IMG/VR virus record: IMGVR_UViG_3300021387_000299
Span: 113,820 to 177,819 of that record
Strand: one strand, 5' to 3'
Length of the DNA: 64,000 nt
From: a virus
Taxonomy: Duplodnaviria > Caudoviricetes
The position numbers and the translations under genes were made by a program. Below the pieces are notes generated by a model that worked only from the letters and a program-made list of their open reading frames with translations, was not told the origin of the DNA and did not search any database. Below are positions 1-60,974 of the stretch, piece after piece. Position 1 is the stretch's first letter. Every line of letters begins with the position of its first letter.

Positions 1-522
1 TCGAATACTATTTAAAGATTTATCTAAATCTTGTGCATATCCATATGCGCCTTGCAAAGCACCCACAAATCCATGTAAAATACTACTTGATAATTGCCAT
101 CTTGCAGTATTTTTCAACGCAATTCACATGCTATCTAACAACTTGTTAGATTCTACCATAGGTTTTTGCGCAGTAACAATACTATTAGCTAAATTTAAAA
201 AAGCTTTTTGACCATCAGCACCCATCGCAGTCATATCTCTAGCTAATTTGCTTAAACTTAAATCAGAATTATTTAATTGTTGATTAAATTTAGATAAATC
301 TAAACGACCGGTATCCGCATTTAACGAATTATTTAAAGCTGTTTTAAGTTTTAAGACTGACTGTTGCGCATTAGAAATTTGTTGGTCAAATCCATTTGTA
401 GCACCATTTTTAATAGAACCACTCATTAAATTATCTAATGAATTTTGTAAATCTTGGATTTGCTTTTTCGCTTGCGTTGTATCTGCTTGAAACCCTAATT
501 TAACATTTATCTGTTTTGGCAT
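1..522 (-). CDS. Tape measure protein, N-terminal part (runs off window); TGA at 124-126 read as Trp
   Basis: Frame stays open past the TGA to base 1: LLDSM[W]IALKNTARWQLSSSILHGFVGALQGAYGYAQDLDKSLNSIR; helical Ala/Gln/Leu-rich sequence downstream of tail genes. Confidence 0.85.
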
Positions 523-631
523 GTTCTACTCCTTTCTCTCTTCCATAAAAAAAATACCCCATGAAGAAAATATCCTCATAGGGTATAAAATAACTATTCT
601 TCTTTATTCTTTTAAAAAGTAAATAGATTGA

Positions 632-1156
632 TTAACCAAGTTTGGTCACAACTTCATTTACAAGTTCAACACCTTTACTTTGATTAAGTTCGTTAACAAA
701 TTTTTGAACGTCTAAATCTAAATTCTTATAATCCTCATTTATAGCATCTAAAATTCCATATGCAGAATCTTGATATTTATAAAATTGTTCGATAGTTTCT
801 TTTAATAAAGTATATAGATATCCAATATCGCTTTCTGGAATCGCAGTAAATACAGCATGATAAAAACCAGAAGAGATAAAATCGTCATAAAGTTTTCCAG
901 CGTTTTCTTTCTGTTTATCAGTAATTGATAAATTAGTATAATATTCAATTACTTTTAAATGAAAATACATATCTACTTTTCCTGGATTATAAAAACGATT
1001 TTCATCCGCTGCTAAATTTAAAACTTCAGTAATCAAATCTAATTTCTTTTCAATAGATAAATAAGGTTTAACTTCAATTTCCTGTTCATTTCAAATTAAT
1101 GTTTTAACAGGATCTTTTGGAGTTAACTTTAATTTGTTCAATGTTGGTTTTGCCAT
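632..1156 (-). CDS. Putative tail assembly chaperone (TGA 1091-1093 = Trp)
   Basis: ATG at 1156 with AGGAG RBS; MAKPTLNKLKLTPKDPVKTLI[W]NEQEIEVKPYL joins ORF 632-1036 in frame; lies just before the tape measure gene. Confidence 0.65.
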
Positions 1157-1224
1157 ATGATATAATTCTCCTATTATGTTCTATTTTATTATACCAAAAA
1201 TTTTTTATTTATACAAACTTGTTT

Positions 1225-2763
1225 TTATTTTAACGCATTAGAAGAAATTGTTATTAATAGATTCATCGTTTTCATTTTATTAGTAAGTCTTGTAATTCGC
1301 CTTGCAGAAGACGCCCTATTTCTTTTAGATTCTGGAGCAACCCAATCATTTTCTGTTCAAATACCATCAGGATATTTGGAAAAGTTCATTAACTCTATAT
1401 TTCCAATTATTTTATCTAATAATTCAGATAAATAATAAACCTTGTATCCCTCATTAGTACTATTATCATTAACTATAAATAAATCAACTTTTTCACTATA
1501 TCCTTTATCTGTAAACACTCCACCAGAAATAGCTTTTACAAAAGCTGTGATTTTCATAGCTTCATGCATTTTATTTACATCATTCAAACTAAAATTTGTA
1601 TCAGTATGAGTTCCAACAATATTTAAAAAATGATTTATAAAATACGAGTAATCTTGAACTAAACCTAATAAATTTTTACCTTCTAATAATTTCAAGTGAT
1701 CAAACCCTGTACTTAAATTATAATTTTTTATAGAAGTATTTATATTTTCAAAACCTTTAAAATATAAAGTTGCATCTACTTTATCTTCAGTTAAGTTAAC
1801 GGTAAACTCATCTTGCTGCAATTGCTTAAGAGAAAGTCTGTTACCAGAATCATCAAACATTTTATCTTCATCTCTATATAAAGCATAATAACTCAATAAA
1901 GATCCTTTTACTCCTTTTCGACTTTTGTGTGGCTTATTTTTTGGATCATTTAAAAACTTTAAAAGTTGATTTTTAGAAACCCTTCCTTTATGATTTAAGA
2001 CATAATTACTTGCTTTTGCCACAACTTCACCAAATTCGCCCTGAGCCTTTCCCGCAGAGGTTAATTTAAGAGCCCTTATTAATTCACTTAATTCATCATC
2101 AAATCTTTGATATTTTTCATTTTTTCTAAGCCAACGACGCCATATTACTTTAGTATTTTTAGTCTTTTTTGTATATGCTGCAACATCATCTTTAAAGTTC
2201 GTATATTTTAAATCTAAATCTTCTAATTTTTTATAAAGATCTGCGGAAATTTTATCTTTTGCTATTTCTTTTCTAAATGCAACCAATGCCTTATATCTAT
2301 CTTCTATTGATTGAATAGAACGTTTATCTGCTATTTGATAATTACGAAATTTTTTTACCTTTTCTAAAAGCTCTTTTTCTTTTTCTGTTAAACTTGCTAC
2401 ATCCACACCAGAAGAAACTGATAACGTATTATTGTCTAAATATATATGACTACCGAACATATTTTCCATATATTCTGAAAGCGCTGCCCGCATTGTTTCA
2501 ACATCCTTTTCATTCAATTCACCCTTTTCTATATTTGTTTTTATTGCAGGATTAAAAAATAAATTTAACATTTTTTCAAGTTTTTCTTTATTTCCAGCCA
2601 AATCATTTTCAAATTTTTTCCTCGCCATTTCTTGTTTCATCATTGCTATTTGAGTATCGTATATTTCTTGCGGACGAGGAGGGGTTTCTTTTTTATATAA
2701 ATTAGTTGAATAATTAAGATAGTGTACTCTTGTTGCATGAATATAATCTCCAATACCCGCCAT
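1225..2763 (-). CDS. Hypothetical tail-region protein (TGA 1357-1359 = Trp)
   Basis: 468-aa ORF extends a further 44 codons to TAA at 1225 if TGA is read through. Confidence 0.65.
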
Positions 2764-2801
2764 ACTTTATCACCTCTTAAATAAACAAAAAAAGGGAAAG
2801 A

Positions 2802-2987
2802 CTATTCGTCTTCCCCTTCATTTTCTTCAACCATAATTTTTAAACCAGCTTCAGGCTTAATAATAGTAATTTTAGCTTTAGATAAATCTAAAACAGGTTC
2901 TTTATTTTCGCTCTGTTCTGGTTTGATAATCTTAATAGTAGCCGGTTTAGAGACTACTCTTTTTCTTTTACTAGAGCGAGAAAACAT
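2802..2987 (-). CDS. Small hypothetical protein
   Basis: AGGAGG RBS; internal repeat IKIIKPE/ITIIKPE. Confidence 0.6.
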   Translation of the reverse strand: MFSRSSKRKRVVSKPATIKIIKPEQSENKEPVLDLSKAKITIIKPEAGLKIMVEENEGEDE

Positions 2988-3001
2988 AATTTACCCTCCT
3001 A

Positions 3002-4126
3002 CTAGTCATCATGGTTATCAGATGACATGCTTACTAATTCATCTGAATATGTTTCACCATCATGCCATGTACGACCACGATGTAGGTCATTATTAGCATC
3101 AGAAGCTGTTGTAGCACTCTCAATAATCTGAATAACAGCAAATACTTTATGACTCTTATCGAATCTTGTGTAGTCTGGGAATGCATCCATTGTAAATGTA
3201 AATGTTGATGGATCACCAGTAGCAGCCATAGTAAATGTAAATGCTGACTGAATCTTACAGTTAGGAATGATAAATTCAGCTGGATGGTCTACACCATTTG
3301 TATCTCTCCAAAGTGTTGAACCTTCAAGATAATATGTACCAGCGAATTTTTCAGCATCAATTTCAATCTGTTTAGCGCCAGAACGAACTGGTGTATAGTA
3401 ATCAATTAAAACACCATTACCAATACCAGCATCAACAGCAAGATTTGTCTTACCATCATCACCTTTACCGACGCCAATTTCATACATATGATTCATATCA
3501 GTATCATGGCAATTTAATTCTTTTCCAAAATTACATTCATGACTTTCAACAACCATCTTATATGAACCATCTTCTTGAGGTTCAATTTTTGCATAAGTCT
3601 TTGAAGCTGCATCAAATGCAGAACCTGTCTGCTGATTAACAATATAAGGTTCAGAAATAACTTCACCATCTTTTGTGATCATAATGCAAGCGTAATTTTC
3701 ATTTTCAACTGCGCCATTAGCTGTTGGAACAGGTAAGAAAGGTTCTTTATCTACGAAAACAGTTAAAGTCTTTCCATCTTCACTAACAGTATATTCATCT
3801 GTTGTTTCAACAATATGCTGATAAATAGGCTTATCTTCAGAAGCTTCAATTAAACCAGCACCAGTTAAAACTGATAAACTTTCTGGAGAAATCAATGCAT
3901 CTTCCATAGTGAAAGTAACTGTACGTTCACCTTCCCACGCCATTAAACGAGCATTACCTTTACCACCCTGCGCATAAACAGTTGTAGAAGCACCCTCTAA
4001 TGTTGAAGTAGTCAGTGTGTCGAAATATAATACTGGTTCATTCTTATAGAAACGCTTGTTTCCCAAATTCATTGTACCCTTGGCTCTAAGTACAACGTCA
4101 ACTACGTCACGAACACCATATTTCAT
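3002..4126 (-). CDS. Major tail (tube) protein
   Basis: Strong RBS, biased codon use, tube-like motifs (GGKGNARLMAWEGERTVTFTMEDAL; FTFTMAATGDPSTFTFTMDAF), position in tail module; no in-frame TGA. Confidence 0.75.
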   Translation of the reverse strand: MKYGVRDVVDVVLRAKGTMNLGNKRFYKNEPVLYFDTLTTSTLEGASTTVYAQGGKGNARLMAWEGERTVTFTMEDALISPESLSVLTGAGLIEASEDKPIYQHIVETTDEYTVSEDGKTLTVFVDKEPFLPVPTANGAVENENYACIMITKDGEVISEPYIVNQQTGSAFDAASKTYAKIEPQEDGSYKMVVESHECNFGKELNCHDTDMNHMYEIGVGKGDDGKTNLAVDAGIGNGVLIDYYTPVRSGAKQIEIDAEKFAGTYYLEGSTLWRDTNGVDHPAEFIIPNCKIQSAFTFTMAATGDPSTFTFTMDAFPDYTRFDKSHKVFAVIQIIESATTASDANNDLHRGRTWHDGETYSDELVSMSSDNHDD

Positions 4127-4144
4127 GGGCTTTTTCCTCCTTCT

Positions 4145-4867
4145 TTAATCTTTATGGATATTTCTCATTCAATCTTCAGGCTTGCCATCAGCTTTTGCCC
4201 CAGCAAGTCTTGATCGAATATCAAGGTCTCAATTAGTATAAAGACCAAATCTTTCTAATGAATCTAATACTTGATATACAGTATAGTCCACTAAAGTTGT
4301 AATTGGTATTTTTAATCCAATAGATAAAGCTGATAAATATCGTGCATAAACACTTCCAATATCATCACCTTTTAATTTAGCAATTCGTTCTCTACCTTTT
4401 TTAATTTTTTCAGCAATTTTTCGAGCTTGCTCATTTACTGGATTAAAATCATCCTCTTTTTTCTTTAAACAAAAAACTTGCCGCAAGATAGTCTGGAAAT
4501 ATTCAAAATTTCCTTCATCTATTATAATGTTTGTGCCATTATAATTTAACAATAATGCCCTTGGAGTAAAGGTTATTTTTCCATTTGGTACAACTAAAGA
4601 TAAGGCTTCTTTTACTGCTTCTTTAGTTTCTTTAGCATCTTTCTCTGACATTATTGTCATAAATATTTGAAAATTTGAAGTATTAGATAAATCTGATCCG
4701 CCCTGCTCAAATTGTTCTTTATCTATACAAAATACTTGTATTCCTGTTAAAAATTGTTTTTCTCCAACCATTGATATTTCTTTAATTGTCGGTTGATGAA
4801 TAATTAATTGACATTCTGGAATGGGAATATCCACTCCAGTAAATAGTGCAAGATCAATATCTTTCAT
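4145..4867 (-). CDS. Tail-associated protein (TGA 4229-4231 and 4169-4171 = Trp)
   Basis: Read-through gives LYTN[W]DLDIRSRLAGAKADGKPED[W]MRNIHKD then TAA beside the next RBS. Confidence 0.75.
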
Positions 4868-5463
4868 TATTCTTTAAACTGCTTTTGTTTAAATAATTCA
4901 TTAAAATCATCAACCATCTTCTGCTGATCATCTGGATTAGGAGTATCTTTCTTATCCTCTCCACCATGAACTGCTTGATACATTAAAGTTAATCCTGCAA
5001 ATTCATCATTAAGAATAATCTGACTTGCGCCTAAAAAATGTAATTCTCCAATCCCTGTTAAATGCTCATTATCAAACATTGAATCAATTTCCGCAGCAAT
5101 ACGATATGGACGCAATTGGAAATCCTTTAACTGCCATTGATCGAAATGACATATAATATCAAAGGTAATAATATTATCTCTAAATTGTGGATTCGCACTT
5201 GGCGTAAAATTATCCATAGATATAATTACATAAGCCAACACACTTCCATCTACATAAATTTTTGGAATAATTTTTATTTGCTTTCCAATCATATTTGCAC
5301 GTTGTTCTTCAGTCAATGCTGGTCGATCCAACGCATCTCTATCCGTGTAATATAAAATTTTACATAAATTCTTATTCTTCATCATTCATTCAGTTATTAA
5401 AGCTAAATCTTTGTCGACCGACATAAATGATGAATGCGGAATCGTATATTTCTTAATTATCAT
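4867..5463 (-). CDS. Putative tail terminator/completion protein (TGA 5386-5388 = Trp)
   Basis: ATG 5463 with GGAG RBS, in frame with ORF 4867-5385; synteny. Confidence 0.65.
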
Positions 5464-5481
5464 AATACTCCATTTTCTCCT

Positions 5482-6474
5482 TTAAAATAAAGATTCTGCA
5501 ACAATAGTTTTTTCAGCATCGCCGCATTTTAATACAAACTGACCATGATAACTTGATTGTCAGCTAATAACACATTTACGACCGTCTGCTTTCATTTGAA
5601 CAGGAACTTTCTTTCCTATAATCTTCCATTGTGCAAGATCTTTTCCTCTATAGTAATAAGTATATTCAATTCTTGGTTTAATAAAAGTATCTCCTTTAAT
5701 TAAATCATCGAGTGTAGAATCTGCGTTTGGATCAATCGGATCCATTACAAGACCATCTACCAAATAATTATTAACGTCATCTTTAGTCTCATTTGCATAA
5801 TATTCTACAGCTACAACTTGTAAAATTCCAGGCATACTAATACTATCAGTTGCTTCAACTCTTCAGCAAATATTCTTATCAGCCTCATCAATACCCTTTA
5901 AATAAAACTTTGCATAACGTCTAAAATATTTTAATGCTTCGGGTGTTTTAGTCATAAGAATATCTAAAGAGTGATTCGGTTCATCTACACTTATACCATT
6001 CTTTTGAATAAAATTAATCTTAGTTTCTACTGGACCTCTTACCGCAAGATATTGGGTAAACTTCTCTTTATCTTCATTTAACCAAGATACAGTATAATTA
6101 CAACGTCTAATTTCTGCTCTAAAATAAGCAAGTTCAGTTAAATCTTGTAAATAAATTATTCATTTAGTTCCAGTATTTAATCAATCAAAAATGTCTCCCG
6201 GTTTATAGCGATACTCATATCCAACAGAGAGAACTTTATCATCATAATTTTGTTTTGTCTTATCCGGATTAATTAACGCTGGTGCTTGTTCTTGATCTAC
6301 CGCATCAGTATGTTTAATTTTTGCCGCTTGATAAGAGTATTTTGTTGCATGATCTAATGTTCATCTTTTATCGCGAATCATTCGATCTTGTTGCGGTTTT
6401 CCGCCATGCCAATTTATTCTATTTGCCATTAAATTTATTCCAGAAAATTGAGATCTATCAGTACTATATGGCAT
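5482..6474 (-). CDS. Putative head-closure/neck protein with five TGA=Trp codons (6361, 6181, 6160, 5863, 5560)
   Basis: One 331-codon frame fills a gap in the ORF track; contexts IFD[W]LNTGTK[W]IIYLQDLTE and IC[W]RVEATDSISMPG. Confidence 0.8.
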
Positions 6475-6769
6475 TTAACGTCCCCCTTAATAAAGAAATT
6501 GATTCAAATACTGTCTTTCTATAAATACTAAATTCCAAATCTTCAGATACTCGCAAACCTTCAAGTTTACTTAGTAAAATTAAGAATTCATCATTTGAAG
6601 CAAATATCTCTGATAATCCCCTAATTTCAATAAGGACAGTATTTAATTGTTCCAATCAATTTTCTCCATTTTCTCTCATTGGAATTAATTTTCAAAGTTG
6701 ATTTGTCAATCTATTTATATCAGATTCAAAACTAGACCTTGAAATATTAATGCCTAACTTCGTAGTCAC
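6464..6769 (-). CDS. Hypothetical head-tail region protein (TGA 6692 and 6656 = Trp)
   Basis: GTG start at 6769; NRLTNQL[W]KLIPMRENGEN[W]LEQLNTV. Confidence 0.7.
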
Positions 6770-7343
6770 CAAAGATTCCATTTCTTAGCACATCCCAATT
6801 TGACTCAATATAGCCATCGCTATTTATTCGTCTACGCTTATAAAGGCGTTGCATATGGAATGATTGTCTCTGACATTCTGCTAATAAATTTAATAATTTG
6901 GCAAGATGATTGGCTTGGGAGGTCATTTTAAAATCAGACCCACTATATTTCATGCGGGTATTTTCAATAGATGTAACTTGGCGTTGAAGCCATCCGCACA
7001 TCATTAATAATGCAAGAATATTAATCTCTTCACTCGTTAAATCTACATTAAAATGCGAGCGTTCAATATATACATCAGGAATTCCCTCATCTTCCTCTTC
7101 ATCTGGAGTGTTTCAAACAACTCCAATAACAAAATCCCCTTCTTCAACCTTATCTTCTCGAACAATAAGAGTTTCAATAGAAAAGTCGTCTAAAATTTTA
7201 CGAGGGAATTCAAATCCAGGAATTGCATCAATTAAAAGGGACCTTAAGTCCCTCATTGTGTCTTCTGGAGTTAACTCCATGTACATATCATCTGTGATTT
7301 TACCAAGAAAGCGATTATATATATCTGTGAACTGAGTTCCCAT
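6747..7343 (-). CDS. Putative head-tail adaptor (TGA 7113-7115 = Trp)
   Basis: ORFs 7113-7352 and 6747-7004 are one frame separated by a single TGA. Confidence 0.7.
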
Positions 7344-7367
7344 AATATACACTCCTTTCTTATTTAA

Positions 7368-7973
7368 TTATTTCTTAATAATCTTAGGTTTATTTGCGGC
7401 GACTGCTTCTGCTGCAACCCCTCCAGCTGATCTACGTGTAGTTGTCTGAACTCTACGAGTCTTTGGAGCCTCTGCCGCAGGTGCTTCACCGTCATCATTA
7501 GCTCTATTTTCTCTATCATGAGCAATTGCTGCATCAACATCAAATCCTGTCATTTCCTTAAGAGCCTGTCTCTTAGAAAAATCATTTAAAGGAATCTGGA
7601 CGCTTAAATCTTTAATCATATCTTTAACACCATCTGGCGCAAAATCAAGAGCATCCTTAAATTCGTTTAAAGTACCCTCTCTAATAAGCTTAGCGACATT
7701 ATCAGCATTCATATAATACTCAGGTTCTCTATGAATATTTAAATCATCTAAAACCTGTTCGTCTTTAACCAAGAGGTGGTTTCTGATTAAGTCAAGTCCG
7801 CCAGCTGTATATGATAAAGCTTCAATTTCCTCTTTTGGAACTCTGATAGCCTGTCTAGGAGCTAATTCTCTGCGAATATGTCTATCGGGAATTTGATAAA
7901 CAATTTTTCCAGCTGTTCTATTTTCAACTGTTACTAAATCTGCCATATTGTAATAATCTCCTTTTTCTCTCAC
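7368..7973 (-). CDS. Virion-module protein of unknown function (start probably MADLVTV)
   Basis: Long ORF, GGAG RBS, between capsid and neck genes. Confidence 0.7.
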   Translation of the reverse strand: MREKGDYYNMADLVTVENRTAGKIVYQIPDRHIRRELAPRQAIRVPKEEIEALSYTAGGLDLIRNHLLVKDEQVLDDLNIHREPEYYMNADNVAKLIREGTLNEFKDALDFAPDGVKDMIKDLSVQIPLNDFSKRQALKEMTGFDVDAAIAHDRENRANDDGEAPAAEAPKTRRVQTTTRRSAGGVAAEAVAANKPKIIKK

Positions 7974-8030
7974 TTAATGAAAATAAGGGGAGAGGGGATT
8001 TACCCCTACTCCCCTTTAACTCTTAAATAT

Positions 8031-8441
8031 TTAGTTTTCTTTAAATGTTACTGTTAATGTAACACTTTCGCCCTTAGCACCAATTGTAATTGTTGCTGGT
8101 GTTGTGGCAATTGTTTCTGCCTTAGTCCAGAATACAATATGTCCTGCTCCAAGGCCTAATCCAGCTGCTTCCTCTACGTCAGCATCTGTTAATTCAGCAC
8201 CATTCCATGTAGCACCAACGATTGTCTCAAGACCTGTATTAATATCTAATCCAATCCACTTATGCTCTCCTTGAGCCGCATTAGAAGATGGGAATGTAAC
8301 TAAGTCTTCAAGTTTACCTTTGATGACAATGGAAGTACCACTTTGTTCAACCTCAACGGCCCCATTATTGACTACCATGCTATCATAGCTGGCGTCCCAT
8401 GATGGAAGAGTGGCCAACTTACTAACCGTTGTTGTTACTAC
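8031..8441 (-). CDS. Ig-like/decoration domain, probably fused to the major capsid protein by -1 frameshift
   Basis: No ATG or SD; frame is open back to the capsid stop (CAG GGG TAG) in the -1 frame; beta-rich, ends VTLTVTF. Confidence 0.6.
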   Translation of the reverse strand, partial: VVTTTVSKLATLPSWDASYDSMVVNNGAVEVEQSGTSIVIKGKLEDLVTFPSSNAAQGEHKWIGLDINTGLETIVGATWNGAELTDADVEEAAGLGLGAGHIVFWTKAETIATTPATITIGAKGESVTLTVTFKEN

Positions 8442-9589
8442 CCCTGCTGGCCGTTACCGCCTTGATTGTCGCCTGCACCTTCGCTACCGCTTTGGAAATC
8501 AGATGCATTGTCAACAACGACAACGTTCTTAACTGTATCAGCAAGCTGGAATGAACCTTCCTTAGATAATGAAGTATCCTTATAAACGCACATTGCATTG
8601 TTCATCATGCAAACTACGCCGACCTTCTTATATACCTGGATCTCACGGCTCCAGTCACGATTAGCTCTTTCGTCAACAAGTGTATCGCCTTCGAAAGCAA
8701 CCTTAACTGGCTTCATATCTGTGCCTGATGGGATAATCCAGCAGAATGAAGGATCAATAACCTTTTCCTTACCTTCAATAATGTCCTTATAAGCGTTAGG
8801 AAGAATGACAACATTCTTATCTCTATATCCGCTTAAACGACCTGTTCTGTAAAGTTCATCCTTCATAGCTTCTGTGTATCTCCAAGCTTCTTGAGGAATC
8901 ATCTTAACAGCAAATTCGTTAGTGCAGTAAATTGTTACATTACCATATGATTCAGCAAGGCGAACAAGTTCGTCAAATGAAGCTGCATCAAATCCGTTTG
9001 TAACAACGCGGTTCATTGCAGGAAGCTGGTTAATAGCACCTTCAAGAGCCTTACCAATTTCTTCGTAAACAAGGTCATCCATACCTTCCATTACGATATT
9101 TGTAAGTTCAGCAAAGTCAGCACGACCATCAAGGAATTCCTCAAATCCGATCTGTGCAGCTCCGCCAATTGCACTTGTTGGAACTTCGAAGCTTTCAGAA
9201 CTCTTAGCAAGCTTGAAGACTTCATAGTTACCTGCAAGTCCAACTCTTGTAATGAACTGCTTAGCACGATTAGTGCCATCAATCTTTCTACGGAACATAG
9301 GTCTGTCGCCCTGCGCAAATGTCTTTACTTCTGCGAACTGACCATAGTTCTGAACGACTCTCTTAGGAAGAACATCATTCAATGTTTCTTCAATAATAGA
9401 GAATACTAAATTCTTATTTTCACGATATAACTGGTATGTTCCAGCAATCTCTCTGAACTCATTACGAAGTGTTTCGTTAAGTTCATTATAGCTGAAATCC
9501 TGTCCATTATAGCTATACGCCTTAGGAGCTTTAGGATCAGCTTTAGCTACAGTCTTAGCTAATGCAATAAAATTCTTCTTATCTAACAT
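8438..9589 (-). CDS. Major capsid protein
   Basis: 383 aa, strong codon bias, downstream of protease/scaffold; no in-frame TGA. Confidence 0.85.
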   Translation of the reverse strand: MLDKKNFIALAKTVAKADPKAPKAYSYNGQDFSYNELNETLRNEFREIAGTYQLYRENKNLVFSIIEETLNDVLPKRVVQNYGQFAEVKTFAQGDRPMFRRKIDGTNRAKQFITRVGLAGNYEVFKLAKSSESFEVPTSAIGGAAQIGFEEFLDGRADFAELTNIVMEGMDDLVYEEIGKALEGAINQLPAMNRVVTNGFDAASFDELVRLAESYGNVTIYCTNEFAVKMIPQEAWRYTEAMKDELYRTGRLSGYRDKNVVILPNAYKDIIEGKEKVIDPSFCWIIPSGTDMKPVKVAFEGDTLVDERANRDWSREIQVYKKVGVVCMMNNAMCVYKDTSLSKEGSFQLADTVKNVVVVDNASDFQSGSEGAGDNQGGNGQQG

Positions 9590-9608
9590 TTCCTTACTCC
9601 TTTCTTAA

Positions 9609-10334
9609 TTATTTAACGCGCATAACTTTTACGCCAGGCTGCATATCAGGCATTGTGTAAACCTTAACAACCTGCATTGTTGGGTGAAGAGCGTCTGCGC
9701 CTTCGCCCGGTGCAAGATAACCATCAGCGCCAGGTGTAAGCATATCGCCAACCTTTAGGCTACCTGGTTCAGCAGCAATTGTATTTGTTGTCCAAATATC
9801 GCCAATATTAATCTTGAAAAGACGAGGAACCATTCTTGTTCCCTGTGGCATTAACTTATGCTTCTTGTAGTTTTCAACTACATGGAATGGATCATCTGTA
9901 GAATCTACTTCATAAGGAGAAGCTGGCTTTGTAACACGTTCAACATTGTCATTGCCATCTCCATCTTTAGCTCCGTAGAAACGAGCCTGCCATTCTGTTA
10001 AAGGCTGTGTTCCATCAATTGGACTATAAACACGAGCAACATAATCTTCTTTCTTCATAGCAAAATCGCAGTCCTGTTCCCAGTCACGATAAAGCTTGAT
10101 TTCATTAAAGACCATCATCCATTCGCCTTTGCCTTCAAAGTCTACTGCTCCGCCATCATCAGCTGCATAGTTATATGTAGCAAACTGTCCATTCTCAAGA
10201 ATGTCAATATCTGCTGCTGCAGGTAACTGAGCATAGATCTGAGCAGTCTTCTGGGCAGATAGATGGTTTGGTTCAACCTGACCATAACCACGAGCGACAT
10301 ATGTGGCCTTTTCACTTAATCTTTCTCTAGCCAT
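9609..10334 (-). CDS. Capsid-associated (decoration/cement-like) protein
   Basis: Between scaffold and major capsid; strong RBS; all four Trp are TGG. Confidence 0.65.
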   Translation of the reverse strand: MARERLSEKATYVARGYGQVEPNHLSAQKTAQIYAQLPAAADIDILENGQFATYNYAADDGGAVDFEGKGEWMMVFNEIKLYRDWEQDCDFAMKKEDYVARVYSPIDGTQPLTEWQARFYGAKDGDGNDNVERVTKPASPYEVDSTDDPFHVVENYKKHKLMPQGTRMVPRLFKINIGDIWTTNTIAAEPGSLKVGDMLTPGADGYLAPGEGADALHPTMQVVKVYTMPDMQPGVKVMRVK

Positions 10335-10351
10335 TTACTGTCTTCCTCCTA

Positions 10352-11632
10352 TTATTCCATCTCTCTTTTCGTAGCCATAGCAGCTTTGATCCAAGCCGGT
10401 ATCATATCATCTTCAATTCCCTGTTCATCTAAACTGAAAACTGTGTTACCATTTTGCTCTTCATCTTTTTCTTCATCAAGATCAAAACTAACCTTGTTAC
10501 GAACACAAATTACAGAAAGCTTCGCTTCGATATCATCAATACTGTAGTTGTCAATATTCTTAACTACATCCTGCTTATCTTCATCAGATAGCATGTAGAA
10601 ACTATCAATCATTGCCTGCTTTTCTTTACGATCGGCCGCATTCTTAAATTCTACAAGTTTATCATAATCAGCTTTCATATTGTTGAACTTAGTTTCTAAC
10701 TCTTCATAGTCAGCCTTTAGTTCTATATATTCTTGAATATCATCAAGATTATATTTAACGCTTTCGTCCTCAGAATTTTCTTCAGGTTGCTCGTCTTCCT
10801 GAACTTCTTCTTCGGTTTCAGCAGGAGCTTCTTCTGCTTCTTCTTCTGGAGTTTCTTCAACTTCAGGTTCTGCAGGAGCTTCTTCTTCTGGTTTTTCTTC
10901 TTCGTTATCTAAAACTTCTTCTTCCATTTCTGGTGTCTTTACTTCTTCCACAGAATCTGTCCCTCCTTTTATTTCCATCTCTTTAACTTCTTTCATCATA
11001 GATAAAATCTTTTCCTGGAAAGAAGGTTCAAATGAGAATTGCACTCTGGTGATTTGCGCACCCTCGAAGCAAGGTTCAACATCCTCACCAAGAATACAAA
11101 GTTTAGAGATTATTGCTTCATTTATAATGAAAAAGCTCAAATTTTCATTATCATTTTCTGACCAAAAACCTTTTAAAGTAGATTCATCTAATTCCATAGA
11201 TTGATTATTACCCTTGGTAATAACTCTTTGAGTTTCTGGATATTGGCCTGTTCATAAATATCCTTCTGTCATCAAATATTCATGTTCAACGCCATCATCA
11301 GAAAATTTTTGAAACCACACCTTTGGATTTAAATCAACAAATCCATAAGGCTGTGTAGTATCTTTAAAGAACCAATCTCCATTGCGAATATCAATGCTTT
11401 GATTATGTGCCTCAAAGTCCTCAGTGTTTTCGTTATAATATCCCACAATTGGACAGCCCGGTAAAGTTTTTGCCATATCTGTGGCAACAGCTTTAGTAAT
11501 AACGCTACCATTACGATTAGGGCTATCTCCTACATAACATACCTTAATTTGGCATTTTGAAATAAGAGGATTTAATGTTGGTGTAACATTGATAAGCTCA
11601 ATAGGAGAATCTACTGCTATACTATTATGCAT
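10352..11632 (-). CDS. Prohead protease/scaffold (TGA 11252-11254 = Trp)
   Basis: Fused frame EYLMTEGYL[W]TGQYPE..NNQSMEL..LCILGEDVEPCFEGA, then acidic coiled-coil scaffold. Confidence 0.85.
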
Positions 11633-11645
11633 TATCTAACTCCTC

Positions 11646-13289
11646 CTATTTCATACTCTCTCTATTTGCAATTGTTTTGTCGGATAATTGATCATCATCC
11701 TTTTTAGGACGACCTGCTTGTTTTGATTCTCCACCTACCGCAGATCCTCCTCCTGTAGAAGTTTGCGAATTACCACTATTTGTTTTATTTTTTCTGCCCA
11801 AATTTTGAATATCTTCACTACCAATAGTAGATGACATCATAGGCGGAATCATAATTTCACTTAATCCTAAAATATCATTTTCGAAATAAGCGGTGCTCAT
11901 GATTGTATTTTGAGAGTGTCCAAGAGCAATCTGCGCAAACATCTTACCATAACCAATTTGCATTTGTTCTTTATACATTTTTGATAATTCTTTATAATTA
12001 TATTGTGTAGTATCTAATATGTAAAATCTAAAATTATATTTCTTCTTATTCTTGACTTTTCTCTGTACTATTGTATCAAATAAAATCTCAAATTGCAACT
12101 TTAAGTCCCTCATGACGCCCTCATCTTGCAAAATCGAATTGGTCTGTGCAAGATTTCCATCCGAGTTAAATATATTTTTAGATACGCCGGCCGCATTATA
12201 TACAGTACGTTCAACTCTCTCTAAATCGTCATTATCAACATTTCTTGCATCCGATAAATCAATAGAATCAATATCCGCGAATGTTGTAATAATATCTGTT
12301 CCAACAGAATGTTGTAACATCGCAACAGCATTATTATGAATATCTCTTGCTTCATCAACATCGAAAATTAAATCACCATTTTTATCTATTGGAAGTTTCT
12401 GCACAATAATTTTTAACAGATCTTGCATCTGTTTGCGGCGATCAAGATCCTGCGCGGCATCAAGATCAAGTAATGCTGGAATTACGTTAAAGAATAATGG
12501 TAGATCTCCAGCTCCACTTAAACTAAATTTAACTGCATATCCAGGATCTAATAAGTATCATGTGCCAATATCTCCTTGGAAATCTGGTTGCAATCTTCTT
12601 TCTTTATATAGCATATATCCTTTTTGGAAATCTTTAGGGAACATTTTAAGAACTCGCATTCTATAATTAATGTCCTTAAATTTTTCATCAAAATATGCCA
12701 TATTAAATTCAATAGCAGGAAGATTATTTATATAATATCTGCAACGGCAATATTCTGGAGGTAACTCTTGGAATAACACTCCATTCGTTCCTTCAATAAT
12801 ATAGCCATAGCATACTCCATATTTAAGAACCTTTAACGCAATATCACCGCATAATTTCTTAATATGAGTATTATCTAAATAATCTAAATTTTTAAAAAAT
12901 TCATTAGTAATTTTTAAACAGTCTTTTTCACTGTCCAAAACAGATTCATCATAGATTGTTGGAACGGTATACCAGTCCCAACGATACATTGTTGCATAGT
13001 AATTAACAAGTCTTTGATAAATACCGTCTATTCTATAGAAATAATCTGAAATCATTCTAATTGAATGATAATCTCTGTCTATAATGGCACGCATTACAGC
13101 ACGTTTATCAATACATCTTCGACCATCTATTTTTTTATAAAATCCTAAATCTATAATAGCATCTTCAAGAGTTTTTATACCTACTTTAATTTTCCCATAG
13201 TCAGCGGCGCCATTCATATCAAAGCCTTTATCTCTAATGGCCTCTTGTCTATCCTTGTTTTCCAAAAGCTCCACCTCCTTAGCTTCCAT
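11646..13289 (-). CDS. Portal protein (TGA 12558-12560 = Trp)
   Basis: Two ORFs in one frame joined by GDIGT[W]YLLDP; about 547 codons; between terminase and protease. Confidence 0.8.
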
Positions 13290-13638
13290 ATGCTTTATTA
13301 ATTATGTAATCGTAACTAATAAGATTTTCGTCAGTATATGGAATTTCTATTAATTTAATATCATGTAATTGACAAAATCTACGTTTTTTCGCATCATTAA
13401 ATTGCTGCTGATAAAATCCTTTTTTTCCACCAAATTTACTACTTGGTTCATAATGTTGTCTGCCTTGATATTCAATTAAAAAATCTATATTACCGTCATC
13501 ATCAAAGACCGCAAAATCAAAACGAAGAGGTCTACCATTTGAACTATTTAATCCTTCAAATGATAATTCCATCTTAAAATTTAATCCCGCTTCTTTTAAA
13601 ATTTCTTCTATTTTAATTTCTCCTCTACTTGCTCTCAT
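13279..13638 (-). CDS. PD-(D/E)XK / Vsr-like endonuclease
   Basis: Motifs LRFDFAV, LIEYQGRQHY, D..KRRFC..HDIKLIEIPY. Confidence 0.75.
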   Translation of the reverse strand: MRASRGEIKIEEILKEAGLNFKMELSFEGLNSSNGRPLRFDFAVFDDDGNIDFLIEYQGRQHYEPSSKFGGKKGFYQQQFNDAKKRRFCQLHDIKLIEIPYTDENLISYDYIINKAYGS

Positions 13639-13648
13639 ATTAATTCTC

Positions 13649-15433
13649 CTATCCTATATGTGAACTAAATCGTCATTCAGCAGCATTAAATTTCTTTTTC
13701 TTTTTTCGTTTACTGTCTTCAACTTGTTTTATATAATATAATCCATATTCAAATGCTGAAAATTTATCTTTCTTAATTCCACGATTAGCTTGTTTTAAAA
13801 TAATATTAACACCTTCATTTTCTTCACGAAGATTTAACATCTCTTCTTTTAATATAGAAGTTAATGTATATGGTTTTAAGTAATCTGCCCTTTCTTCTGG
13901 AGTCATTTGTTTTCCTTTAGATGTTCCTAATAATTTTGTTTTAGCAATTCTTTCATCAATTAAAAATTTAATTCGTCCAGAAATAAGTTGCGTTTGAACA
14001 TTAGAATGTGCTTCAGTATTGATAGGTGCATTTGCTTTCATTAAATACATTGCATCTTGTTCTGTGCGAGGTGTTCTAAATTTTTTATATTGTTGTTCAA
14101 TATCTGGGGTAGTTCCACCAATAACGCCAAAATCTGGATATTCATCTCCAGTAATAGGGTCAACTTGTGATTTGACCATAAAGTCTATTAAACCACTACC
14201 AAGACCATTAGCGTCAATTACAATACGTCTAGCTTTATATTTATAGAATAGACGCTTTGCTCAAATTGCTTGGTCTTCAAAATGCATATCACTTAGAATA
14301 TACAAATTAACCAAAGATTTAATAGATACATCGCCATAGTTTTGCGGAATTACTTTAAATACAGTGATTACACTATCGCATCCATCTTTACCAGAGCTTT
14401 GGCGCGCAACGTCCATTGATAAGATGTAATAACTTTGTGAGCTTGATCGACCGGAATATTCATATTCTGGTTTTTGTAATGCTCTATTTCTATCAAAAGC
14501 TTCGCCATTAAAGAAAGCATCCGCAACAGTTCCACTTCATTTAGATTCATATTCACGCTCAAATGATGCCTCATTAAACGTACCATCTCGTTTAAGGTCT
14601 TGAATAAAGTTTTTATCCAATAGTCCGGTCAATACTGGAATACGGAATGTACCACCCATAATTATAGCTTTTTCAGGCTCGGTAATCATCCATACTAAGA
14701 ACTGAATTAGTTTATCATATGCAAAAGTATTTTTATATCCAGCAGTAGTAACAAAAATTTGAGATTTATTTAGAGTCTCTTCTGGATGCATTGTTCCATC
14801 CATACAAAGTCTTGAAACGTTCATGGTAGGAATAATAACTTCAGAAAGAATCTGTCCATCAACGCCTACGCACTCTTCTACAAGTCCGCCATGACGACGT
14901 TTACCTCTTGATTTTTCACTTGCCGCAATATTATCAAAGAATGATCCATTTTTAAACATATAACAGACATAGTCCTTACCTTCTCTTGTTCGACCAGGAC
15001 TTCTATCTAATTCACGCTCAAAAGCTGGAACTAAAGTGCAAATTTCATTAACTTTTTCTTTAACAATACCCGCTGCCTGTTCTTTACCTCCAGAAGTAAC
15101 AAACAACTTAGATCTGGGATAAAGCACGCAACGGCACATTAATACTAATACTGACAAGAATGATTTTGAATACGCACGGGGGAATACCATGTATACATAT
15201 TTATATCGCATCGCCGCACGCAAGAATACTCTTTGATAAAAAAAGAATTTTAAGCCATTTTCGGGAATTTCTCCATCTCGTCCTGTTTGCATAAAATCTA
15301 CAAACATATCGGGATATTCTCTCCAAAAGGCAATGTATTGTCTTAATGCTGGTTTAATAGCTTCAATTCTTTCTTCTGATAATCCAATCTTTCTTCTATC
15401 TTGAGAAAGATTTAATAAATCTTGTAGAGCCAT
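13649..15433 (-). CDS. terL: Terminase large subunit (TGA 14537, 14261, 13673 = Trp)
   Basis: Walker-A-like FPRAYSKSF, RGKRRHGGLVEE, VTTAG coupling motif, FEREYESK[W], nuclease motifs LSMDVAR, IDANGLG, KDKFSA in one frame. Confidence 0.9.
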
Positions 15434-15435
15434 AA

Positions 15436-16686
15436 TTATGACCTCTTTTCTCCAGATAAGTTTAAGAAAATATCTTCATTTTCTTGTCTTAAAGATTCTT
15501 CAAAATCATTAAATTCTTCAAATTCTCCATCAGTAATATATTTTAAATCATCACTAAATAAAGCATCTTCAAGAATATCTTCATCACTTGCCGCATCTGC
15601 ATCAGTTTCAGCTTCACGACGTTTATCTTCCTCAATTTGTTTAACCGCACTCTCAATAAGATTACCAATGTTGGTTTCTTCAGTAATCAATGATTTTGTA
15701 TAGCCTTGAAGATCTTGAAGCACTCGATCAACTTTATCTTTTGGTGAATCTATATAATATCTTGGAATAAATCCATCTTTTTCGCACATCATAACTAATT
15801 CAGAAATTGAATCAACAATTTCACCATTTTCTGCTTTATTCTGAGCAGCAGTAAATTTACCACTCTTCATTAAGCTATCATACATTTTTTGCATTTTTTG
15901 TGCGCCATCGACATCACCAAGATCAATAAGCTGATCAAGTTTTAGTGAAGTCTTTGCCAATTTTTTTAGAGTGTCTTTATGTCCAGCTGTTTGAATGTCA
16001 TAAGATTCCATAAAATCGTTATAGTATTGCTCTAATTGAACCCATTCCTCTGGTTTATAAGATTTTCCTCATTTAAGTTTTAAATAAGTTACATCTTCAT
16101 CAGTTAAGCCAAGTTCATCCGCAGATTTAGAAGGTTCTTGGGAAAATTCTATTGTCGAAAAGGTATCTGCGCTTTCAGCTTGTTCAGGCTCTTCCGCATA
16201 TACTATTTCTTCAAGACTCTTTTCCTCTTCTGGAATTATATTTTTTTGTTCTTCAATAGCTAAGGTAATTTCTTGAATATCTTTACCTTGACGCTCCATG
16301 CTTTCGCGCAAACGCTTTTCTGCAAGTTCTTGTAAAAATTCAGTATCTTTCCAACGATATTGTTTATATTGGTTTAACTTCATTTTAGATAGATATCTAC
16401 CTAAAATAGTCATACCAGTTACTTTACGTTTATCTTGTCCATATTTTGCTAAAAGTTTATTTCACTCTTCTGGAATATATGGAACATCTACTTCTTTTAG
16501 AATCGGCGTAAAAGTAGAAGCATCTCAATTATCGACATGCATTGTCAAACATTTTTTACAAATAGGAATAGTTCCGCCATCTGGATATTTTTCTAAATTA
16601 TTTGATTGATAAAATTCTCCACGTTTTAGTGTTCTATGACATTTTTCACAATATATTAAATCATTTTTATTTGCTGCTGTCGCCAT
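15436..16686 (-). CDS. Probable terminase small subunit with N-terminal Zn-finger (TGA 16525, 16462, 16069 = Trp)
   Basis: CEKC..CKKC; HVDN[W]D, VPYIPEE[W]NKL, YLKLK[W]GKSY; directly upstream of terL. Confidence 0.7.
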
Positions 16687-16728
16687 AAACTACCTCCTTT
16701 ATTTATTTTAATATCCACCTGCCGCAAA

Positions 16729-17781
16729 TTATTGTTTTTTGCCCTTTTTATTGCGGCATTCTTTACAAATACTATAGTAACCATCTTTGCTAGTTTTATT
16801 TTTACTAAAATATTTATTATGAGCTAATTTAATTTGACCGCATCGAGAACATTTCTTATATGTTCCTTTTTCCTCGTTTAAATAATATCAATTTAAAAAA
16901 TCATCCTCTGCCGCTGAAGCTATCAGATTGGGAATCTTTTTTCGCCATAAAGATGAAATATATTCAAGGCTATGACGAATGCCAAATTCCTCTTGAATAA
17001 TATCTCGTATTTCCGCATTTTGTAAGCCATCTATTTTGCATTCAACGATTCGATAATATAAAGGATGATCTTTAAGTGCCGCCGCACTTATTTTATCGAA
17101 CTCCTCCATGAGGTATCACGTATCACTAAAGAAATCACCCCATGAACGCTCTTTTAATTTTGAGTAATTACATAAAATGATAGAGCAGATATTCGGATCC
17201 ATTAGCGACACTCCAGAAGGAACAGGATATCCATCCTCATCCCAAGAGATCTCTTCTGGTAATGTTGTGTAATGTTCTGAATGAACTAGATGCATGGCCT
17301 GTACGGGAGGTTTATATGCTTGTTTTATTACATATTGATCTTTGCGGGTTTCTATTAAAGCCTTCTTGGCGATATATGTATCTCGTCCTTCCGACTGCCG
17401 CACGATCTTATCCCATGCTGCGATTGCGCCATCTGTTTGTGCTAATTCTGGTATATCTTCTCTATCTTTTTTAGTTATTGAAATCTTAGGTTGCATTATT
17501 ATATGTTTATTATCTGTAGTTATATTATAGACGCCATCTTCGCCATTTTCAAATTGGGAAACCAAGCCTTCATAAGAGGTTTCTCTCTTATTCACTGTAG
17601 CCAAACGGTTTTCGGTAAGAATTTTTTTCTCCTTTTTCTCTTCTTTCTCCATACAAAAGACTAGATAGTCAGCTAGAATTTCAAGATAACTAGGGTCAGG
17701 ATTAGGATTTTCCTCTAGTATTTTGTTAACTACTTCTAATCTTTCTTGGGGAGAGTCTAAACTATAATCTAATTTAGTCAC
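16729..17781 (-). CDS. HTH plus C-terminal Zn-finger protein, candidate late-transcription regulator (TGA 17116, 16888 = Trp)
   Basis: Sigma-region-4-like GLQNAEIRDIIQEEFGIRHSLEYISSLW; CSRC..CKEC appears only after read-through. Confidence 0.65.
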
Positions 17782-17816: not shown

Positions 17817-17846
17817 ATTATACCAGAAATTTTCTATAGTTGTCAA
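17817..17846 (-). promoter_or_regulatory. Sigma-A-type promoter upstream of the morphogenesis operon
   Basis: TTGACA-N18-TATAAT with extended -10 TG on the minus strand. Confidence 0.65.
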
Positions 17847-21292: not shown

Positions 21293-21601
21293 ATGATCAA
21301 CATTCGCACACTCAAAGGACTCAAAGACAACGACGGTTTAACTTTGAAAAATGGAAAAAGAATCACTTACAAAAGCGGTTATCAGGTCGCTACAGAAGGC
21401 ATTGAAACAACCGATGTAAGAGAAGCCATGAATTGGATCAAAATCAATGGCGGCAACTGCGGAGTATGGTTCGCAAATGGTATCTACTACATTGACAAGA
21501 GTCACAGAGAATCAACCAAAAGAAAAGCTCTTGAAATTGGTAGAGCTTGCAAACAGATTTCAATTCTGAAATGGTCTGACATGAGTCTGATCTACTGCTG
21601 A
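21293..21601 (+). CDS. Early hypothetical protein; TGA stop inside terminator hairpin
   Basis: GAGGAGG RBS; ACTGCTGAAAAGCAGT followed by T-run. Confidence 0.75.
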   Translation: MINIRTLKGLKDNDGLTLKNGKRITYKSGYQVATEGIETTDVREAMNWIKINGGNCGVWFANGIYYIDKSHRESTKRKALEIGRACKQISILKWSDMSLIYC

Positions 21602-23047
21602 AAAGCAGTTTTTTATTTGCGGCGGGGAAGTTTGTGAATGTTTTAACTTTCACAAGCAAGTACGGGCAGTTAGTTTAGACTAACTAACTCGTGCGCTTTT
21701 CAATTTGAAATCATAGATCGTTCCATTTGTCAAGAGAAAAATTTTTTTATTTTTGGTATTGACTTGATCCCGAAATGTGCTATAATAATAATGTAAAAAG
21801 AAAAAGGAGAAAAAATTATGTTCGTATTAATTTCAACAAATGGAAAAATTATGGGTACTTCTGAGGATGCGGAAACTGTTAAACTGGCTTATCTCATGTA
21901 TAAGAAATTGTATCCTCTTAGTGATTTCAAAATTGTGAAAGCTTCCACTCTTAATAAAAAGGGAATCATTAAATTCTTAACAGAAAATATTGAAATTAAT
22001 TAAAAAAGAGGGTTGACAAACCCTTTTTTCGTGTTATAATATAAGTGTAAAAAGAAAAGAGGTAAACAAAATGATGAAAGTTAACAACCTGCCGGAATAC
22101 GCTAAAACAAAAAAGTACATCGTCGCAAGACGCGTGGATGGAGAACTTTGGTTCTGGGGCGCGTGGAACGATAGAGACGCCGCTAATGAAGCCGCTTTAG
22201 AGGAAGGCGGAATCACAATCACAAATGATCTTCTGAAAAATGAATGATCATTTTTTTTATTTCATTTCATTTTCATTTGGGTTTCATTTCATTTTCGTTT
22301 GAGTTTGTGAAAATTAAAACTTTCACAAGTTTAAACGGCGCGGAGTTAGTTTAGACTAACTAACTGGGAGTTAGTCTCCGCTAACGACCCAAAATTATAG
22401 CAGAACTGGCGCCAGAAGTCAAGCGAAAAATTGATCAATTTTTTTAAAAAAATTTCATTTTCCCTATTGACAACAGAAATAAAAGTAGTTATAATAAAAG
22501 TGTAAAAAGAAAGAGGTAAAAAAAATGTTATTAAACAATTTTGACGGAATGGTTACAAAAGTAGATGATGAGCATTACATGATCTCTGATGAATTTTTTG
22601 AAAAAAATAAAAAATGGGCTGGTGATAAAGAAGTCCTGTATGTCCATGAGTTCTTCTATGATGAAGAAATTGAAGATTGGTTCTCTGCTCAGCTTTATAG
22701 AAAAGATAAAAATTTATATTATCTTGAAGAATTGTTCTAAAAATACAAAAGTGGGGGTTGACAAAACCCCCGCTGATACTGTATAATCTAAGAGAAGATG
22801 AGGAGGGAATGACAATGACAATCTTCTATGTATACTACAATAACACTGCTGAAATGTTTGAGGATTTCTACGAAGCCGAAGCATTCGCTGAAAAAGTTGA
22901 CGGGATCCTGTCAGACGCATGGGGTGAACCGATCTGCTGATCGGTTTTTTTATTTTGATAAAAAAGATGAATAAGTTGTGCATCTTTTTGTTGCATTATT
23001 AGAATTTTGAGCGTATAATGATAGTAGAAATAAGGGAGGAACACAAG

Positions 23048-30310: not shown

Positions 30311-30637
30311 ATGACAAAAGTTGGAACAGTTTACATGGTTACAGAAAAGGGTCTCCGCACAGTAAAGGTTGGTTTCACAACAGACTGGGCAAAGAGAAGA
30401 GGGAATTATCACACACACAGCACTTGCGCAAGAATCATTGACATTATGGATGGTACAGACACTGATGAAAAGATGTATCAGCAGAAAATGCTTGAAATGG
30501 GATTTACAAAAGCCTTCAAGTATTCTCCAAGAAATGAATGGTTCAGACTTCCTAAGGGCATGAAGAAATCAGAACTCGAACATCTCGGATTCGGAATCTT
30601 TCAGAAAGATGAAGAAGAAGATGAAGAAAATGCTTGA
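30311..30637 (+). CDS. GIY-YIG/T5orf172-like domain protein; ends in TGA
   Basis: GTVYMV..VKVGFT....R..Y, E..Y, NEWF. Confidence 0.7.
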   Translation: MTKVGTVYMVTEKGLRTVKVGFTTDWAKRRGNYHTHSTCARIIDIMDGTDTDEKMYQQKMLEMGFTKAFKYSPRNEWFRLPKGMKKSELEHLGFGIFQKDEEEDEENA

Positions 30638-31176
30638 CAAAGCATTTTTTTTGTAGTATTATAATAATGTAAAGAGAGGTAAAACAAATGAGAATGACAT
30701 TAAAACTCGCTAATCAGCTTATGGATTCACTCGTATGCCTTGCCATTAGTGCTAATGGCGGTGCAGACTATGACCACTTACCAACAGATGAACAGATGGC
30801 GTTGGTTACGAAGTATGCCAGCAATAAACTTCTTGAAATTTGCGCAGAATGGGAAGTCCTCAAGGGAGAAGAGTGGGAGATTGAAGAACCGGAAGAAGAG
30901 GTCGATGAAGAACCCACCCTCGATCTTGACATGGGGTTTGACCCCTACATGGGATGCTACACAGATGACTGCTGAAAAGCAGTTTTTCTATTTGACTGGG
31001 CGGGCCGTTCGCAGGCGTCTTTTCCTGCGAACGGCCCGAGCTTTCCATTATACCACGCGGCAGAAAATTTGTCAAGCATTTTTTTTGAAACTTTAGTGTC
31101 AATTTTTATCCCAAAATGGCACGCCTGGATCTGTGTGCATGGTTTGCTATTGGTAAACTTTTTGTTTAAAAAAGGC

Positions 31177-32765: not shown

Positions 32766-33161
32766 ATGACAATGGCAAGACGGACAGCCGAACAGACTGA
32801 AGCGTTGATTCAGAAACACATGAGAACATTACATTGCACTAGAGAAGAAGCGATTGATGTTATCAAGTGTGATGATGAAATTGACGGCGGAAACACTGAA
32901 TTATTTGCACTGACCGCTGATCAGAAAAAGATGGTTAGAAATCTCACGAAAGCGGATAGAGATCCTACGGTGAAAAGAGAAGTCAAAAGAGATAGAAAGA
33001 TTGACGATGATAAGTTGAAAATCTTCACTGTCTTGAAAGAAGCCCTTGAAGGTGCAGAAATTGAAAATCTGTCATGCAAGAATGAAGCAGAAATCAGTTT
33101 CACCTACAACGGCGCGGAGTACACCGTAAAGCTCACAAAGCATCGTGCAAAAAAGGCTTGA
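32766..33161 (+). CDS. Hypothetical protein, paralog of 37518-37889
   Basis: Shared LI..HMRTL.CTREEAI and YT..LT.HRAK. Confidence 0.75.
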   Translation: MTMARRTAEQTEALIQKHMRTLHCTREEAIDVIKCDDEIDGGNTELFALTADQKKMVRNLTKADRDPTVKREVKRDRKIDDDKLKIFTVLKEALEGAEIENLSCKNEAEISFTYNGAEYTVKLTKHRAKKA

Positions 33162-60960: not shown

Positions 60961-60974
60961 GCGAGGTTTAACAT

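Follow-up and report, generated by a model that had tools for sequence, protein, structure and literature searches.

The final 64 kb of virus record IMGVR_UViG_3300021387_000299 (positions 113820-177819 of a single 177,819-bp sequence; this whole stretch of 64,000 nucleotides is called the window below) contain late genes in which TGA stands where relatives have tryptophan (Trp) codons, together with early genes in which TGA occupies conserved stop positions. The reading we prefer, at a probability of about 0.8, is that the phage infects a host with the standard genetic code and supplies its own tRNA with anticodon UCA, tRNA(UCA), such that TGA would be Trp in the late genes but a stop in the early genes. 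The finding is real and well supported but adds one more case to a phenomenon already in print, for late-gene recoding, the suppressor tRNA and the hypothesis on timing have each been published.

The record is 95% complete (CheckV), has a GC content of 34% and 29 tRNA genes, and derives from an uncultured SPbeta-like siphophage of the animal or human gut. Judged by portal, capsid and terminase, its nearest cultured relatives are phages of Firmicutes, namely Brevibacillus phage Sundance, SPbeta-like Staphylococcus phages, and phages of Enterococcus and Bacillus. For comparison we used 80 related IMG/VR loci recruited via the terminase and five further stretches from near-complete relatives, 85 loci in all. 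Positions are those of the window unless given as genome positions, and the late block is genome 58-131.6 kb.

Two readings of TGA in late and early genes

Using a code-4 listing of open reading frames (ORFs) and a codon scan, we reproduced exactly the 24 in-frame TGAs in 13 minus-strand genes at 1-17781 that had been counted in a preliminary description of this DNA, as well as its window-wide total of 29 TGAs in 16 genes; the five extra TGAs lie in 40939-41637 (minus strand), 60646-60960 and 60975-61340 (both plus strand). The 13 genes are among 19 minus-strand genes between 1 and 17781, and all 19 are closed only by TAA or TAG, as had been stated. Reading through the TGAs restores a 594-amino-acid (aa) terminase, a 547-aa portal protein (PHROG 2739, E=3e-79) and a 2800-aa tape measure (PHROG tape-measure families). 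These are three of the four full-length products originally proposed; the fourth, a protease assigned to 10352-11632, was not confirmed under that label, and this gene read through gives 426 aa belonging to PHROG families of unknown function. The three Trp-like contexts singled out earlier are present, with EGYL-W-TGQ at codon 127 of 10352-11632, EYESK-W at codon 299 of the terminase (13649-15433) and KIGDGVKA-W-NDLPY at codon 50 of 60975-61340.

Gene calling under the two codes gave the same picture. With a simple codon-usage gene caller run genome-wide, coding density rose from 75% under table 11 to 86% with TGA as sense, and the gain was confined to late regions. Bins within genome 12-132 kb climbed to 89-100% coding density when TGA was sense, and table 11 shattered the late block into about 90 fragments.

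The homologues do not lack Trp at the TGA columns. At 23 of the 24 TGA sites we could align 786 codons from relatives, of which 622 (79%) were TGG and 66 (8%) TGA; the remainder beyond these 688 codons was confined to a few variable columns. The TGA at 11252-11254 is TGG in 65 of 69 relatives, that of the portal gene (12558-12560) in 68 of 71, and each of the three in 15436-16686 in 54 to 70 relatives. The terminase has a TGA only seven codons before the gene end, which is TGG in 57 of 63 relatives, implying that it is also Trp. The sole site without coverage by relatives, 1357-1359, is followed by 43 codons that are still coding-like (+8.1). The base following sense TGA differed only weakly from that following TGG (p=0.012), with C depleted after TGA; a leaky-context model for the sense TGAs was rejected, as this is the opposite of the direction it requires.

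That early genes use TGG for Trp, as previously noted, was borne out by counts of 6 TGA to 187 TGG codons in early genes and 186 TGA to 119 TGG in the late block (Fisher p=3e-45). In the recoded late proteins 40-60% of Trp codons are TGA. The split follows function, not position. Recoded genes outside the late block encode tail-fibre/leucine-rich-repeat proteins (genome 13.6-19.9 kb), an amidase endolysin (5 TGAs), a RuvC resolvase (4 TGAs) and, within the window, a tail-fibre protein with an Mtd_N domain (60975-61340).

Under table 11, 13 early or middle genes (about 13% of early genes) end in TGA. Coding scores between this TGA and the following TAA or TAG do not exceed 1 and are usually negative, whereas the equivalent stretches of late genes reach scores of tens to hundreds. 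The TGA stops originally placed inside terminator hairpins, at 21599-21601, 22938-22940 and 30973-30975, are present, and we found further examples at 30635-30637, 33159-33161 and 31177-31179 (minus strand), six in all; the enclosing hairpins are stem-loops followed by T-runs. Several early TGA stops fall within the TTGACA of the following promoter. Two ATGA overlaps had also been proposed. The one at 50245-50248 is sound, and that at 40216-40219 exists but its upstream ORF is merely a 61-aa frame with a GTG start.

None of the three TGA-ending early genes tested aligned with homologues beyond the TGA. In 21293-21601 the TGA corresponds to TAA at the same codon in six relatives and to TGA in a seventh, and in 32772-33161 to TAA at the same codon in a homologue that is 67% identical (locus L087). 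The 275-aa read-through product of 49508-50248 served as query against 5.8 billion proteins, and the 120 homologues listed all had lengths of 233-247 aa and covered at most 89% of it; hence none of those listed aligns past the TGA. Five PHROG profiles stop at the same position, one checked homologue (48% identity) ends in TAA, and a relative that is 89% identical retains the ATGA overlap. The locus search returned no related loci for this 246-aa gene, and a DNA-level search of the early region gave matches mainly to repeated promoter and hairpin elements.

The 85 related loci share the late genes and fall into three classes, 15 TGA-recoded, 50 TAG-recoded and 20 with neither, so that one phage family has three coding states. 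The TGA-recoded loci are the closest relatives (at least 73% protein identity), with TGA making up 21-59% of their Trp codons. In the 50 TAG-recoded loci (among L017-L086) in-frame TAG stands opposite glutamine (Gln) in 56% of cases. The idea that all TGA-free relatives use the standard code was rejected, as these 50 are TAG-recoded.

Late genes of the TGA-recoded lineage end in TAA 65 times, TAG 23 times and TGA never (0/88). The corresponding figures are 72, 16 and 8 in standard-code relatives and 216, 2 and 37 in TAG-recoded relatives, giving 45 TGA ends among 351 homologous late genes in the other lineages together. As TGA ends homologous late genes in both standard and TAG lineages, it was an ordinary ancestral stop, and TGA stops have been purged from the late genes of the TGA-recoded lineage.

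A phage tRNA(UCA) and the explanations it allows

A 95-nt tRNA with anticodon UCA is encoded at genome c58412-58506, outside the window (ARAGORN; Rfam tRNA match 62 bits). Its anticodon loop, CUUCAAA, matches phage tRNA-Trp(CCA), and it has a long extra arm and its own encoded CCA end. An Hsp20-like gene and a holin gene (PHROG 13712, E=3e-23) flank the tRNA in a unit with the order promoter-like site, 73-aa ORF, Hsp20-like gene, tRNA, holin and terminator. This unit starts after a terminator with an 11/12 promoter match and closes with a strong bidirectional terminator, and all three of its protein genes are TGA-free. Rfam gave no ribozyme or further family beside the tRNA, and neither a release factor nor a tryptophanyl-tRNA synthetase (TrpRS) was found in the genome.

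Host-type promoter matches number 128 in the early region against 56 expected from shuffled sequence, and the late block is at background. Between 21000 and 37000 there are 29 perfect TTGACA-16/18-TATAAT matches on both strands, many of which oppose genes and adjoin GC-rich hairpins.

Based on these features, we propose a model in which the host most likely has the standard code and its release factor 2 would read UGA as a stop. Indirect support for such a host comes from the conserved TGA stops of early genes and from the use of TGA as a stop in sister lineages. Early and middle genes would be transcribed from the many consensus host-type promoters, with TGA terminating translation there. As tRNA(UCA) builds up, UGA would be decoded as Trp in competition with termination, and only from that point could virion, tail-fibre, endolysin, resolvase and sigma-like proteins reach full length.

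Several observations weigh against this model. Many of the 85 loci are near-duplicates, and hence the counts and p-values given above overstate how many independent events there were. One recoded gene, 40939-41637, sits inside the early region, and its homologues in two recoded relatives have two and three TGAs. The holin beside tRNA(UCA) is free of TGA, which argues that not every lysis gene is gated. Backup stops after early TGA ends are no closer than after TAA or TAG (median 8 versus 14 codons, p=0.27). A search by BLAST and anticodon-loop pattern, without a full tRNA scan, did not find tRNA(UCA) in five related genomes, and inspection around the holin gene, which four of the relatives have, did not reveal it either. 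The negative genomes include two TGA-recoded relatives that are 93-94% complete, G001 (behind L033) and G002 (behind L009), and G001 has no tRNA next to its holin; the suppressor of these two may differ or sit elsewhere. Finally, nine bacterial contigs from metagenome-assembled genomes that carry the terminase were assigned to Treponema, Clostridia, Bacteroidales, Lachnospiraceae, Erysipelotrichaceae and others, a scatter which suggests that they are probably mis-binned phage contigs. Since the bins holding relatives are scattered in this way, we infer a standard-code (code-11) host rather than show it, and the same applies to the timing of tRNA expression and to a purpose in delaying late and lysis proteins, as opposed to mere tolerance.

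Mere tolerance is the most durable of the rival explanations, though in our judgement an unlikely one. Here there would be no temporal switch: the tRNA would be present from the start of infection, TGA would have accrued through AT pressure and drift where read-through is harmless, and the split would reflect history or a tolerated lower yield. The 11/12 promoter-like site of the tRNA unit is of host type and could allow early expression, the holin is not recoded, the recoding is recent and differs between close relatives, and the avoidance of recoded codons in the capsid gene and its neighbour in both TGA and TAG lineages (see below) fits a yield cost equally well. However, sense TGA is all but absent from early genes although their base composition is equal, and the TAG lineages and published clades have convergently recoded the same functional classes. 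The persistence of TGA stops in about 13% of early genes, set against 0/88 late genes here and 45/351 in other lineages, is as expected if TGA has two different readings.

A uniform code 4, in which a host of the Mycoplasma type reads UGA as Trp and all TGAs including the early ends are translated, is very improbable. With TGA as sense, TAA or TAG does close every gene, and the extensions past the early TGAs are mostly short (median 8 codons) and perhaps tolerated. A UGA-reading host would nevertheless give no reason for the split between at most six sense TGAs against 187 TGGs in early genes and 186 TGAs in late genes. In three genes the early TGA corresponds to the TAA stop of homologues, six TGAs lie in terminators and the coding signal stops at the TGA; moreover, the phage has its own tRNA(UCA) and sister lineages use TGA to stop the same late genes.

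Selenocysteine or glycine (code 25) at the TGAs, pseudogenes or sequencing artefacts have a negligible chance of explaining the data: ARAGORN does label tRNA(UCA) 'SeC', on account of the UCA anticodon and the long extra arm, but the anticodon loop is that of phage tRNA-Trp(CCA), TGG predominates in relatives at the TGA columns, where the 786 aligned codons at 23 sites include no glycine codon and show no enrichment of GGN or TGY, the frames are interrupted by TGA alone and never by TAA or TAG, and the pattern is common to 15 independent assemblies.

Relation to described recoded phages

Recoding in gut phages is the subject of a preprint by Borges et al., which reportedly appeared later in Nat Microbiol in 2022. 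The preliminary description had treated late-gene stop recoding in gut phages as established, and the literature bears this out (bioRxiv 10.1101/2021.08.26.457843; 10.1101/2022.06.29.495998). Borges et al. describe suppressor tRNAs and standard-code relatives with more than 90% average nucleotide identity, find codes 11, 15 and 4 together in four clades, and propose a code switch part-way through infection (bioRxiv 10.1101/2021.08.26.457843).

The present phage resembles the Agate clade in many respects. In both, in-frame TGA aligns with Trp and accumulates in genes for structure and lysis rather than in those expressed early or serving replication; a TGA-suppressor tRNA is encoded near lysis genes and close relatives have the standard code; and the genome is AT-rich and well over 100 kb, with a strong preference for TAA stops and hosts predicted in Firmicutes. 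As to membership of the clade, the agreement extends to genome size, type of recoding and similarity to phages of Firmicutes only. The Jade phages have a 'code change module' of TrpRS and release factor 1 (bioRxiv 10.1101/2021.08.26.457843), whereas this genome is without one. Borges et al. also stress the loss of TGA stops (4 of 146 genes in one standard-code relative), in contrast to the roughly 13% of early genes ending in TGA here.

Dual coding is also described in crAss-like phages, which likewise combine a standard-code part and a stop-reassigned late part in one genome (Mgcod, an annotator for genomes in blocks with different codes, bioRxiv 10.1101/2022.06.29.495998; Yutin et al. PMC7886860). 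Those are podovirus-like Crassvirales of Bacteroidetes hosts with mostly TAG-to-Gln recoding, whereas the phage studied here is an SPbeta-like siphovirus with recoded genes also outside the main block. The nearest named relative is phAss-1 of the proposed Phassvirus group (PMC10607447; OQ749652), with 34.5% identity in the portal and 49.6% in the capsid (tblastn). It is also a gut siphovirus (136 kb) with a very long tape measure, suppressor tRNAs and no aminoacyl-tRNA synthetase, and its TerL and tape measure are listed as recoded and its capsid is not listed (PMC10607447); however, the relation is distant and its recoding is TAG to Gln rather than TGA to Trp. Mycoplasma and Spiroplasma (code 4) likewise read UGA as Trp through a tRNA with anticodon UCA, but do so in all genes and never terminate at UGA, whereas here TGA is also found at conserved stops.

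This genome and many of its relatives are mis-called under table 11. PHROGs splits the terminase 13649-15433 into an N-terminal half (phrog_15503) and a C-terminal half (phrog_24618), which suggests that public relatives have probably been split by table-11 gene calling. The phage offers a clean natural case of a single codon with two meanings in one genome, and its close standard-code, TGA-recoded and TAG-recoded lineages are usable for studying code change.

Sparing of a putative capsid gene, the sigma-like gene and other features

The candidate capsid gene (8438-9589), its neighbour (9609-10334) and a structural gene (3002-4126) use only TGG for Trp, both here and in every TGA-recoded relative. 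The spared genes of the window hold 0 TGA and 13 TGG codons, compared with 24 and 23 in the other late genes (p=8e-4). The load of recoded codons in the capsid gene and neighbour together is 0 of 39 Trp codons in the TGA lineage and 13 of 682 Gln codons in the TAG lineage. In the TAG lineage, TAG makes up 3% of Gln codons in the capsid gene and 1% in the neighbour, whereas the terminase, portal and sigma-like genes reach 22-37%. The capsid identity is based solely on Atlas clusters named for SPbeta YonB, into which the candidate falls; a search of its profile against PDB sequences found no relative, and the structure model was poor (predicted local distance difference test, pLDDT, of 50).

The opposite behaviour is seen with the putative sigma-like gene 16729-17781, which has two to four TGAs in all 10 TGA-recoded relatives and TAG in the TAG-recoded relatives. 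It matches PHROG 5767 'sigma factor' with E=4e-49, and no match was found in Pfam, NCBIfam or PDB sequences, nor by Foldseek. Alignment of its structure model (pLDDT 75) with VIA-align gave sigma-H at Z 6.6 over residues 201-300, a value that falls within the noise expected from helices.

Since two lineages with different recoded stops spare the capsid gene and its neighbour and always recode the sigma-like gene, we tentatively suggest that recoding might act as a graded control of dose and timing beyond an on/off gate, although we hold this to be less likely than not to be correct. The proteins in highest demand would be exempt from inefficient read-through; if the sigma-like protein drives late transcription, accumulation of the suppressor tRNA would license late transcription itself. 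The tRNA(UCA) and the holin stand together in one standard-code unit. The text of the Borges et al. preprint does not mention capsid or sigma genes, and the sparing of the capsid and the constant recoding of the sigma-like gene are possibly new details.

The features of the window are collected in Table 1.

Table 1. Genes and sites of the window, with positions in the window and TGA content
Feature	Position	Strand	Remarks
Tail tape measure, N-terminal 174 codons	1-522	-	Gene at genome 105939-114341; 1 TGA in window (124-126), 22 overall
Late gene, 174 aa	632-1156	-	1 sense TGA (1091-1093)
Late gene, 512 aa	1225-2763	-	1 TGA (1357-1359)
Virion structural protein	3002-4126	-	PHROG 2729; no TGA, 3 TGG; TGG-only also in recoded relatives
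Five late genes	4145-4867, 4867-5463, 5482-6474, 6464-6781, 6747-7352	-	Sense TGAs 2, 1, 5, 2, 1
Putative major capsid protein	8438-9589	-	YonB-like, SPbeta type; no TGA, 3 TGG
Capsid-adjacent late gene	9609-10334	-	No TGA, 4 TGG; spared in both recoded lineages
Head-module protein, 426 aa	10352-11632	-	Acidic coiled middle; scaffold/protease position; 1 TGA (11252-11254)
Portal protein	11646-13289	-	1 TGA (12558-12560)
Homing/HNH endonuclease	13279-13638	-	Between terminase and portal; no Trp codons; in nearly all relatives
Large terminase	13649-15433	-	3 TGAs (14537-14539, 14261-14263, 13673-13675)
Late gene, 416 aa	15436-16686	-	PHROG 3314; 3 TGAs
Sigma-factor-like, first gene of late block	16729-17781	-	PHROG 5767 only; 2 TGAs (17116-17118, 16888-16890)
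Perfect TTGACA-18-TATAAT	17817-17846	-	Only perfect match of late region; directly upstream of sigma-like gene
Early gene	21293-21601	+	Ends TGA inside terminator hairpin 21594-21609
Small early ORF	22809-22940	+	Ends TGA inside terminator 22926-22947
Two early genes	30311-30637, 30694-30975	+	Each ends TGA in terminator hairpin
Exonuclease-like gene, 230 aa	31177-31869	-	Ends TGA inside terminator stem
Early gene	32772-33161	+	Ends TGA in terminator loop
CxxC ORF, 61 aa	40216-40401	-	TGA stop overlaps ATG of next gene 40001-40219
Recoded exception, 232 aa, unknown function	40939-41637	-	Inside early region; 2 sense TGAs
Middle gene, 246 aa	49508-50248	+	TGA overlaps next ATG
Two small genes	60646-61340	+	Upstream of 435-aa beta-helix-like protein; 3 sense TGAs together; 60975-61340 with Mtd_N tail-fibre N-terminal domain

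The terminase match in loci L073 and L078-L086 spans 2.0-2.6 kb compared with 1.8 kb here, which suggests an insertion (intron, intein or endonuclease). The small ORF at 40216-40401 (minus strand) has CxxC...CP motifs, and 38 nt of it overlap the end of the upstream gene. This tRNA-rich phage also has, in its middle region at 48218-49414 (plus strand), a TGA-free gene for an RtcB-family RNA ligase. A seventh tRNA of the window, at 59104-59176 (plus strand), was missed by ARAGORN and detected by Rfam (40 bits); it is not a suppressor, and its anticodon loop reads CAT by eye (Met/Ile type).

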